From a virus (lineage: Duplodnaviria; Heunggongvirae; Uroviricota; Caudoviricetes): a DNA stretch of 47,284 bases. This document shows positions 30,001 to 33,000 of this stretch, piece by piece. The stretch's first letter is position 1; each line of letters begins with the position of its first letter. The position numbers are program-made. The stretch lies in the IMG/VR virus record IMGVR_UViG_2718218305_000010, one strand, 5' to 3'.

Positions 30001-33000
30001 TGCTTATCTGTCGATTCCCCAGCACGCCAGCGCGCTCTCCTGGTCACGACGGGATACCTGACCGTAACAGTTATTTGAGCGAATACGGCAGTCCCTGCCA
30101 CCGTCCTTAATCCACCAGCGAATAGCTTCGCAGGCACCTTTTCGATCTCCTGCATTAATCCGTCTGTAAAACGTCGACGGGAAACACTTACCGGGGCCAA
30201 TGTTGTACGGACAGAATGACGCAATCCCCGCTTTCTGGGGTTCGGTCAGTGGCACTCTGATGTTTTTCTCCACCCATGCCAGCGCCTTATCACGCTCAAT
30301 GGCGTTAACCCCGGTCGCATTTTTCCTTCGACAGCTTCATGCCAGGAATAACAGGCTTACCATCCACCCGGGTGGCTCCACGGCAGATGGTCCAGATACC
30401 CGCACCATCACGGTATGCTGTGGTGTGGTTACCTTCCTTTTCATCCAGAAACTGGTCGAGGATTTCAGGCGCAGACGCCCCTGCACCAATCAGCGCCAGA
30501 ACGGCAGCCGACAGGCCGTATCTGATTTTTGCGTTCATGGATATTTATCAGGGTTTATCGATTTCAAATCCCTGGATATGTTAAGTCTTCAGGCCAGCGG
30601 TGGAGTCTTCAGAGAACCCATAATTATTCCCGGTAGTTTTCCTCTGTAGGTTATCAACACATCCTGCGCCTCTAAAATTACGGGACGCTTTTCCGGTAAC
30701 GGACCATCCCCTTCACATAACCCGGCAGCAACATCCATGAAAAACTGCTTCGCCTGCTTTTTCGCCTCAGCTTCGTAAAACTCCAGCGTGGCACCTTCAG
30801 TACGGTCAAGACTAATCGCCACATCTGGCAACAACAGTGACGGATACCCACCAATTTCCAGTGCCACAGTAACAGTAATCTTATCCGGGTAATTATTTAT
30901 CCCTTTAACAACCAGTTCGTATTTTTTCTTCATCGCTTTACTCTCCCCGCGCCGCCTTACGACGGTCCTCTCTGATTTTGAAATACAGGTTAGTCAGATA
31001 CGTCAGCAGGCCAAACAGCAGACTCCCCAGCACACCTATCGCCACCCACTGGGACGGAGAGACTTTGTCCAGCAGCTGCAGTAACCAGTATCCCGTCCCC
31101 ACCGCTGACGTGGTGTATGACACACCCGTTGTGATTTTTTCCATCTGGTACATACCCCGTCTCCCGCAATCCGGAAGCTCACAACAACAGGAGGGGCATC
31201 AGCTCACACCGACAGCCCCTGCGTATGGTTACATCATCATTTCGCCGCCAGGCTGAGGCTCACTGCTACCGTCAGGCTGAGACACAACGCCATCTGAAAC
31301 AGCACTGTCACCCGCGCCGTCTTCAGGCTCAGGAGCAGCCGGTCCCCCCAGCAGCTCATCCAGAATGGCATCCACTTCAGCATCAAGACGCGCCTCAAGA
31401 TTCTGGCGGAGTTGCTGTTTCAGTGCGCTTCTGACTTCTTCAGAGCGCAGGACGTCCTTCACTGCTTCAGCAGTGACCAGAGATTTTATTTCTGACATGG
31501 GATTTTCTCGTTGAAAGGTGTTGTTAAGAAAGTTGCTACGAAATGAGAGGCTCTTCGGGTTTTGTTCCGGCTGACTGGCTGGCGCTGATTTTTTCCGCCG
31601 CCGCGGCATCAATCTTTTTGCGTATATAGTTCCGGATAACCTTATACCCGCCACTTACCAGATATAACGTGCACACCACCGTGCAGAAATACAATAAAAT
31701 AAGCTGTACAAATCTCATTATCCCTCCCGGTTATTGATATGGTGTTGACATCGTTAATACCTGTTGGTTAAAAAAGTGTCCTGCATGTTTTGCTTTGGAT
31801 ATAACGACATTTGCCGCCGGTTCTGGCTCCTTGTTTTCCCTGCCCCGGCGGCCTTTTTTTCCTGCTTACGGGTTATTCACTTCCACTGTTATACTTTCAA
31901 TCAGCACCGGATATGTCGCACCGCTAGTGATATCGGTCACGCGCAATTTGTCTGCCGTAAACGTGCCGACCGGTGACTGTGACAGCATGAACGGCGTCCC
32001 GTCCTTACCATCAATGACCGGCGTCACCTCAATACTGTTGTTACCGGCAAAACGGAAGCCCAGCGTATGCCATTCGTTATCAAATGCGCCGAATGACCCC
32101 AGCTTCGTGTTCTGACCAGCATTTCCCTTGTGGTACATCACATTAAGGTCTGTGGCATCGCTCTGTACGTAAAACGACGCCAGCAGGTTATGACCGGCAT
32201 TACCTTCCAGTGTGACGCCCTGAGGCAGTGAAGAAACCGGCCAGTACAGCGCCAGTGCGTACTGATTAGCTGTCAGTGTGCCATCAACTTTAAAACGACA
32301 ACTGATAAGCCCGCCCTTCTCCAGCAGGTCTGCGCCATTACCGGCATCATGCTGCATAAACCACGAGGAACTTCCTGTCTGTTTGGTCCACCTCAGCGCC
32401 TTACCTCCTGCAGCACCTGCATCATCAACTACCAATGCACGCCCTCCTTCAGCTCCCCATCCCTGCGGATTCAGTAAACCACCTGACTCTGTTGCACGGT
32501 AATAAAGCAGCGTTGTCACTGATTTCCCGTCCGTTGACGGTGTTGATGGTGTGTCCGGTGACGGCTTCTCATCCGGCGGCATCACAACCTGTTCCCCACC
32601 CACCAGTTCAGCCGTCCGTCCTGCATGGAGAAGAATCGCTGAGGCAAGACGGTCAGAAATAATCCCCCTGCGTGCCCATGAGCTGAAATGGCTCGCACGG
32701 TCTGCTGACGTCCAGTTTGCCGACGTCCGGGAGGCCGCACCGTAATATCCTGATGCCGGAATATCCGGGTCTTCTTCCGGTTTGTTCGTCGGGACATTTG
32801 CTCCGTTCTCATCGGTCATGAACGGCACAAAGTGAATATTCTTTTCCGTTTTGTTTTTGTAACTGCCGTACACCGTCTGGTAAGTGGATTCGCTCTTCTG
32901 CTTCCAGAAATAAGTTGTGTCTCCACATATCCAGGGAACACCGTCAGCAGAACCACCAGCGCACTGTCCCACCATATCTGCAAGGTCCGTACGATATTGT

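Follow-up and report, generated by a model that had tools for sequence, protein, structure and literature searches.

The lysis pathway of phage 21, in which the endolysin is held by a SAR tether until a pinholin depolarises the membrane and the enzyme is released, is well established. Among SAR endolysins that have no cysteine switch, the reference proteins are R21 of this phage (PDB 3HDE and 3HDF) and RrrD of DLP12 (PDB 4ZPU). In 99% of the Stx phages covered by a survey, the endolysin/holin pair is a predicted SAR endolysin and a pinholin (PMC8136144), and full lysis cassettes have been reported in all of the lambdoid prophages of strain Sakai (PMC2669165). One Sakai prophage, Sp6, was scored as defective in repressor, recombination, portal, head and minor tail functions, with its host-specificity genes missing. 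No particles were seen from Sp6 lysogens; the prophage excises spontaneously, and its low-frequency transfer is possible (PMC2669165).

Here we consider a stretch of 47,284 nucleotides (the window; IMG/VR record IMGVR_UViG_2718218305_000010). The prophage in it is a Sp6/CP-933N-type lambdoid prophage of E. coli O157:H7 located between potB and potC, given that the sequence runs collinear with that of the potB-potC prophage in strain 9000 and also with a Sakai feature labelled 'prophage Sp6; lambda-like phage'. Strain 9000 (NZ_CP018252.2) is the closest relative and was compared with the entire window. The lysis cassette is of the same type as the predicted SAR endolysin/pinholin cassettes of Stx phages (PMC8136144), whereas the prophage has type III effector genes rather than stx, and its endolysin gene R is interrupted.

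As written, R lacks a single uninterrupted frame for both lobes of the lysozyme fold, and its product stops at residue 77 (Table 1). The plus strand at the site is TTAACCCCGGTCGC, with CCCC at 30309-30312. A minus-strand ATG at 30538 begins a 77-codon ORF (MNAKIRYGLSAAVLALIGAGASAPEILDQFLDEKEGNHTTAYRDGAGIWTICRGATRVDGKPVIPGMKLSKEKCDRG, ending in ...KEKCDRG), whose TAA stop at 30305-30307 lies directly past the G4 run. The neighbouring minus-strand frame is open from a GTT at 30307-30309 and reads VNAIERDKALAWVEKNIR...ACWGIDR up to a stop at 30004-30006. The span of 535 nt is not a multiple of three, and deletion of one C from the run yields a 534-nt ORF encoding 177 aa. In a mechanical ORF list the C-terminal part appears only as a GTG-started piece of 89 aa (30004-30273), which begins at enzyme residue 89, with residues 77-88 absent.

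Table 1. Features of the interrupted endolysin gene and of the surrounding lysis cassette (positions in the window)
Feature	Coordinates	Strand	Remarks
Endolysin gene R (GH24/T4-lysozyme-like, predicted R21-type SAR)	30004..30538	-	535 nt as written, frameshifted
N-terminal ORF, 77 aa	30305..30538	-	Enzyme residues 1-76 plus Gly, then TAA
C-terminal part of the coding region (intact-enzyme residues 77-177)	30004..30309	-	Shifted frame
CCCC run (coding strand GGGG)	30309..30312	.	All other public copies examined have three bases
Holin S, phage-21 type (class II, pinholin family), 71 aa, Met1/Met4 dual starts, intact	30938..31153	-	PF04971 'Bacteriophage P21 holin S' E=1e-32; PHROG holin
DUF1327/YdfR-family gene between S and R	30589..30933	-	PF07041 E=1.8e-46; annotated 'YdfR family protein'
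Ant-like gene (P22_AR_N + ORF11CD3 domains) between R and Rz	29164..29733	-	Domain and PHROG matches
Rz i-spanin, 155 aa, intact	28543..29010	-	PF03245 E=1.5e-39; PHROG Rz-like spanin
Rz1 o-spanin inside Rz, 68 aa, lipobox VSAC, proline-rich, intact	28584..28790	-	

A first-pass annotation made from the sequence alone had described two lysozyme halves adjacent in different frames at 30004-30538, and both the coordinates and the description proved exact. The pieces match consecutive parts of the Pfam family PF00959 (Phage_lysozyme). The N-terminal piece matches profile positions 2-41 of 125 and the C-terminal piece positions 52-125, and the repaired protein covers positions 2-125 (E=1.5e-24, 87.1 bits against a cut-off of 22.3). 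The repaired protein is also identical, at every residue, to a 'lysozyme [Escherichia coli]' encoded on 929 public contigs. Given that the pieces fall on consecutive parts of one profile and that their repaired product is a known lysozyme, these matches identify them as one broken gene and exclude a chance juxtaposition. The gene is intact, at 534 nt, in Sakai (ECs_1532, 'phage endolysin') and in strain 9000 (WP_000992148.1, 'lysozyme'). The window has the same gene at the same locus of the same prophage, and its DNA is identical to that of strain 9000 save for one base; it differs in having one extra G:C pair past codon 76, and hence a product of 77 aa.

The same annotation had called the enzyme a SAR endolysin, a label that we retain because of homology to R21, an N-terminus rich in Gly, Ala, Ser and Thr, the catalytic triad and a phage-21-type holin. 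The repaired protein aligns over residues 9-174 both with phage 21 R21 (PDB 3HDE; E=6.5e-18) and with K-12 RrrD (PDB 4ZPU; E=1.3e-17), and both alignments take in the N-terminal domain. The triad is E35-x8-D44-x5-T50, at the same positions as in R21, and all three residues lie inside the 77-aa fragment. The protein begins with MNAKIR, a segment with basic residues, followed by a 17-residue hydrophobic stretch, YGLSAAVLALIGAGASA (residues 7-23), of which 65% is Gly, Ala, Ser or Thr (63% in R21) and whose maximum Kyte-Doolittle value in a 15-residue window is 1.9 (2.2 in R21). The stretch ends in ASA, and the next residue is Pro. A proline at +1 blocks signal peptidase I, and the ASA-P end would fit a retained signal anchor. 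Taken as sequence features, the homology, the N-terminal composition, the triad and the partner holin support the assignment of the gene product as a lysozyme-type endolysin of the SAR class.

The likeness to R21 and RrrD extends to near-full-length homology, the triad positions, a similar N-terminus and a partner holin of the phage-21 type. The window enzyme is nevertheless a distant relative of these proteins (68 bits, with about 165 residues aligned). It has 12 additional residues, a segment inserted near the C-terminus and eight cysteines; its gene is truncated as written, and its SAR nature is predicted from sequence. By analogy with phage 21, the weakly hydrophobic N-terminus of the intact enzyme would engage the Sec system and leave the protein tethered, in inactive form, to the inner membrane. 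Depolarisation of the membrane by the phage-21-type pinholin would free the enzyme into the periplasm, there to refold and attack murein, with the opening of the outer membrane by Rz/Rz1 to follow.

The holin gene S is upstream of R, and its DNA is identical to that of strain 9000. The position of Rz1 corresponds to that of Sakai ECs_1535, a 'lipoprotein precursor'. Non-lysis genes break up the cassette, namely the YdfR-family gene between S and R, and the Ant-like gene together with a 48-codon ORF between R and Rz (29018-29733). This interrupted order is common to Sakai Sp6 and strain 9000.

The window departs from strain 9000 in three places: the extra C in R, one single-nucleotide substitution and one IS629 element. 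All of the remaining positions match, among them 283 homopolymer runs at least five bases long. In the 45,974 bases that can be compared there are thus no private substitutions and one private 1-bp indel, the extra C. The sole substitution lies in a DUF968 gene (position 36831, A in the window and G in strain 9000), and since the A is found in 227 complete genomes, it reads as a shared polymorphism, neither private nor erroneous.

IS629 (1,310 bp, IS3 family) occupies 13246-14555, inside the tail tape-measure gene, and has GGG on either side (13243-13245 and 14556-14558), a clean target duplication of 3 bp. It carries an ALIL pseudoknot typical of IS3-family elements (13581-13697). The element leaves the tape-measure gene, which is intact in Sakai Sp6, in two minus-strand pieces: an N-part ORF of 818 codons (14320-16776) and a C-part of 337 codons (12221-13234). 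Its junction was looked for and not found in 5,426 complete E. coli genomes, in IMG/VR or in species-representative genomes, and the 818-aa tape-measure/IS629 fusion ORF has no record among public proteins. Judged by these searches, the insertion is private to the strain from which the window derives.

The four-base allele of R is equally confined to the window. A 70-nt query matched 7,275 places, spread over 3,721 of the 5,426 complete E. coli genomes, and none of them has the allele, the best agreement being 69 of 70 bases. In IMG/VR the exact 45-mer with four bases has no match, and the exact 44-mer with three bases has at least 120. The allele has no match in species-representative genomes or in JGI metagenomes, and the 77-aa product is missing from about 15 billion proteins. 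In GenBank, R matches its counterparts in 342 phage records, most of them from Stx-converting phages, at 80-99% DNA identity (98.8% at the top), and none of these records has the allele. The break had been placed in the first-pass annotation at a single base of the C4/G4 run at 30309-30312, and alignment to the intact R of related phages had been proposed there as a check. Both the location and the check held: the closest genome differs in R by that base only, and the run has three bases in every other copy examined. Related genomes have 6-11 places each that match this region.

A change seen nowhere else must be later than all of the sampled divergence, or else is not real. Similarly, the repaired protein is the common allele, which means that no secondary decay has accumulated and that the change is either very recent or not real. 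The lack of any other four-base copy also excludes a conserved or regulatory frameshift. Across the collections searched, the extra base is private to the window, and is neither conserved, nor programmed, nor phase-variable. Phase variation at a contingency locus was rejected given that the run has just three to four bases and that thousands of examined copies include no four-base form.

Split copies of this endolysin, whether errors or real pseudogenes, recur in deposited phage and draft genomes, as is evident from fragment-only PHROGs families and split gene calls. Among the PHROGs, phrog_6543 consists of the N-terminal 71 aa of the enzyme and phrog_7910 of its C-terminal part. One of the 94 full-length IMG/VR copies of the enzyme has a 1-bp deletion. 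The 89-aa C-terminal ORF is a called protein in draft DEC assemblies; these were rejected as instances of the same event because their contigs have three bases at the site and are broken elsewhere.

We consider an assembly error, left over from consensus building or base calling, slightly likelier than a genuine mutation as the source of the extra base, and we put the chance of an error at a little better than even from the pattern of differences in the window. A lone 1-bp homopolymer indel without substitutions is the pattern left by consensus errors in long-read and older finished assemblies, and real divergence usually brings several substitutions per indel. The sole private small change in the 45,974 comparable bases is exactly such an indel, and we count the recurrence of split copies of the enzyme in deposits toward an error as well. 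On the other hand, all other homopolymers agree with strain 9000, even those of 7-8 bases, so the assembly is not generally prone to indels, and a run of three C is not a typical site of error. Mis-mapped paralogous reads could not have introduced the base during polishing, since no paralogue has C4. Errors at methylated Dcm sites (CCWGG) occur in nanopore base-calling; they were rejected as the source here, as the site has no CCWGG. The competing explanation, to which we give a probability a little under one half, is a genuine and recent loss of function, in which replication slippage added a G:C pair to the G3 run and killed R of a decaying prophage. The prophage is indeed defective, and the private IS629 that disrupts its tape-measure gene, with a clean 3-bp duplication, makes a real private loss of function plausible. 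Elsewhere the window is free of signs of indel error. The homologous region of strain 9000 has several pseudogenes and lacks tail-fibre and host-specificity genes downstream of a C40 peptidase gene, and Sakai Sp6 was itself scored as defective (PMC2669165). With 6-11 matching places in related genomes, the loss of one copy would cost little, and given that Sp6 excises spontaneously in Sakai, a disarmed lysis gene could even be mildly favoured. Set against a mutation are the confinement of the allele to this one genome, the lack of an accompanying private substitution in 46 kb and the lack of secondary lesions; all three permit a very young mutation and lend it no positive support. Both halves of the earlier alternative, that the prophage is lysis-defective or the base call is wrong, therefore stand, although 'lysis-defective' was an overstatement: the morphogenesis of this prophage is defective in any case, and the 6-11 matching places in related genomes could supply an endolysin in trans.

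Two readings in which the interrupted gene would still yield an active enzyme fare far worse. The 0-frame stop lies directly past the run, and a +1 shift there would restore the frame, which recalls a programmed, prfB-like +1 ribosomal frameshift at CGG-GGU-UAA (GACCGGGGTTAAC) giving a low, regulated amount of full-length endolysin. We find this extremely improbable, because conservation is nil (0 of the 7,275 complete-genome copies, and none in IMG/VR against at least 120 with three bases) and because re-pairing in the P site would be poor, with a first-position mismatch from CGG to GGG and a middle-position mismatch from GGU to GUU. The sole Shine-Dalgarno-like element, GAAGGA, is about 10 nt upstream; as is known from dnaX and prfB, a spacing of about 10 nt favours -1 rather than +1 shifts. 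Equally negligible, in our estimate, is the combination of a real four-base allele with low-level +1 frameshifting, which would keep the amount of SAR endolysin low in a domesticated prophage with effector cargo. It is also barely conceivable that an active lysozyme forms from two separately made pieces, the N-fragment of 77 aa and the C-fragment of 89 aa that starts at GTG. Both ORFs are open, but the assembled enzyme would be short of twelve residues (77-88), and the GTG has as its only Shine-Dalgarno-like sequence a weak AAGG some 12 nt upstream. The arrangement is conserved nowhere. The two fragments would, moreover, end up in different compartments, given that the C-fragment has no export signal and the N-fragment would be directed to the membrane or periplasm.

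Whatever the origin of the extra base, the prophage in the window is not a viable phage, and its morphogenesis is already defective. A 162-bp tandem repeat (20233-20765; 3.3 copies, 95% match, 54 codons per unit) lies in what is annotated in strain 9000 as the portal gene, which measures 2,580 nt in that strain and 2,502 nt in Sakai. The first 9000 or so positions hold effector cargo, namely espK, espO, an nleB fragment, espN and nleL/espX7, together with IS2 and a gogB fragment; the cargo was assigned by DNA identity to the annotated regions of strain 9000 and Sakai. Three small RNAs were recognised by Rfam matches above the gathering score. The sar RNA, the P22 antisense RNA of ant, is at 10397-10463 on the plus strand, beside an Arc/Ant module in the tail region, and the sRNA STnc100 and the sok antitoxin RNA, the latter beside hok/mok, are at 33944-34110 and 37734-37908, both on the minus strand.

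If the base is real, the extra G:C pair past codon 76 (G3 to G4) would shift the frame and bring a stop two codons on. The 77-aa product would keep the SAR stretch and the E-D-T triad and lose residues 77-177 (about 57% of the enzyme, Pfam positions 52-125). Judging by homology to the R21 structures, the product, short of about 100 residues of the fold, is expected to be inactive. If the analogy with phage 21 holds, the pinholin would still depolarise the membrane and kill the induced cell, the holin, Rz and Rz1 genes being untouched. Murein breakdown would then rely on the SAR endolysins of co-induced sister prophages. Such a supply in trans is plausible, given the 6-11 matching places per genome and the full cassettes reported in the lambdoid prophages of Sakai (PMC2669165). 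Only tentatively, and at clearly less than an even chance, do we entertain the whole of this scenario, in which the allele is real and the prophage is reduced to a pinholin, killing without lysing unless a sister prophage provides the endolysin.

The gene is the known Sp6/CP-933N endolysin, and its only novelty is a private one-base insertion; it is an unremarkable case of a pseudogene or an artefact within a defective prophage that has been well studied. Should the base prove erroneous, the annotation ought to show an intact gene. A real base would mark a further step in the decay of the O157:H7 prophages, which is well documented, and would be a small example of a prophage that leans on its sister prophages for lysis. 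The loss of this endolysin could then slightly lower prophage release, but paralogous copies are numerous. The prophage bears espK, espN and nleL, and Sp6 of Sakai is transferable despite its defects (PMC2669165).
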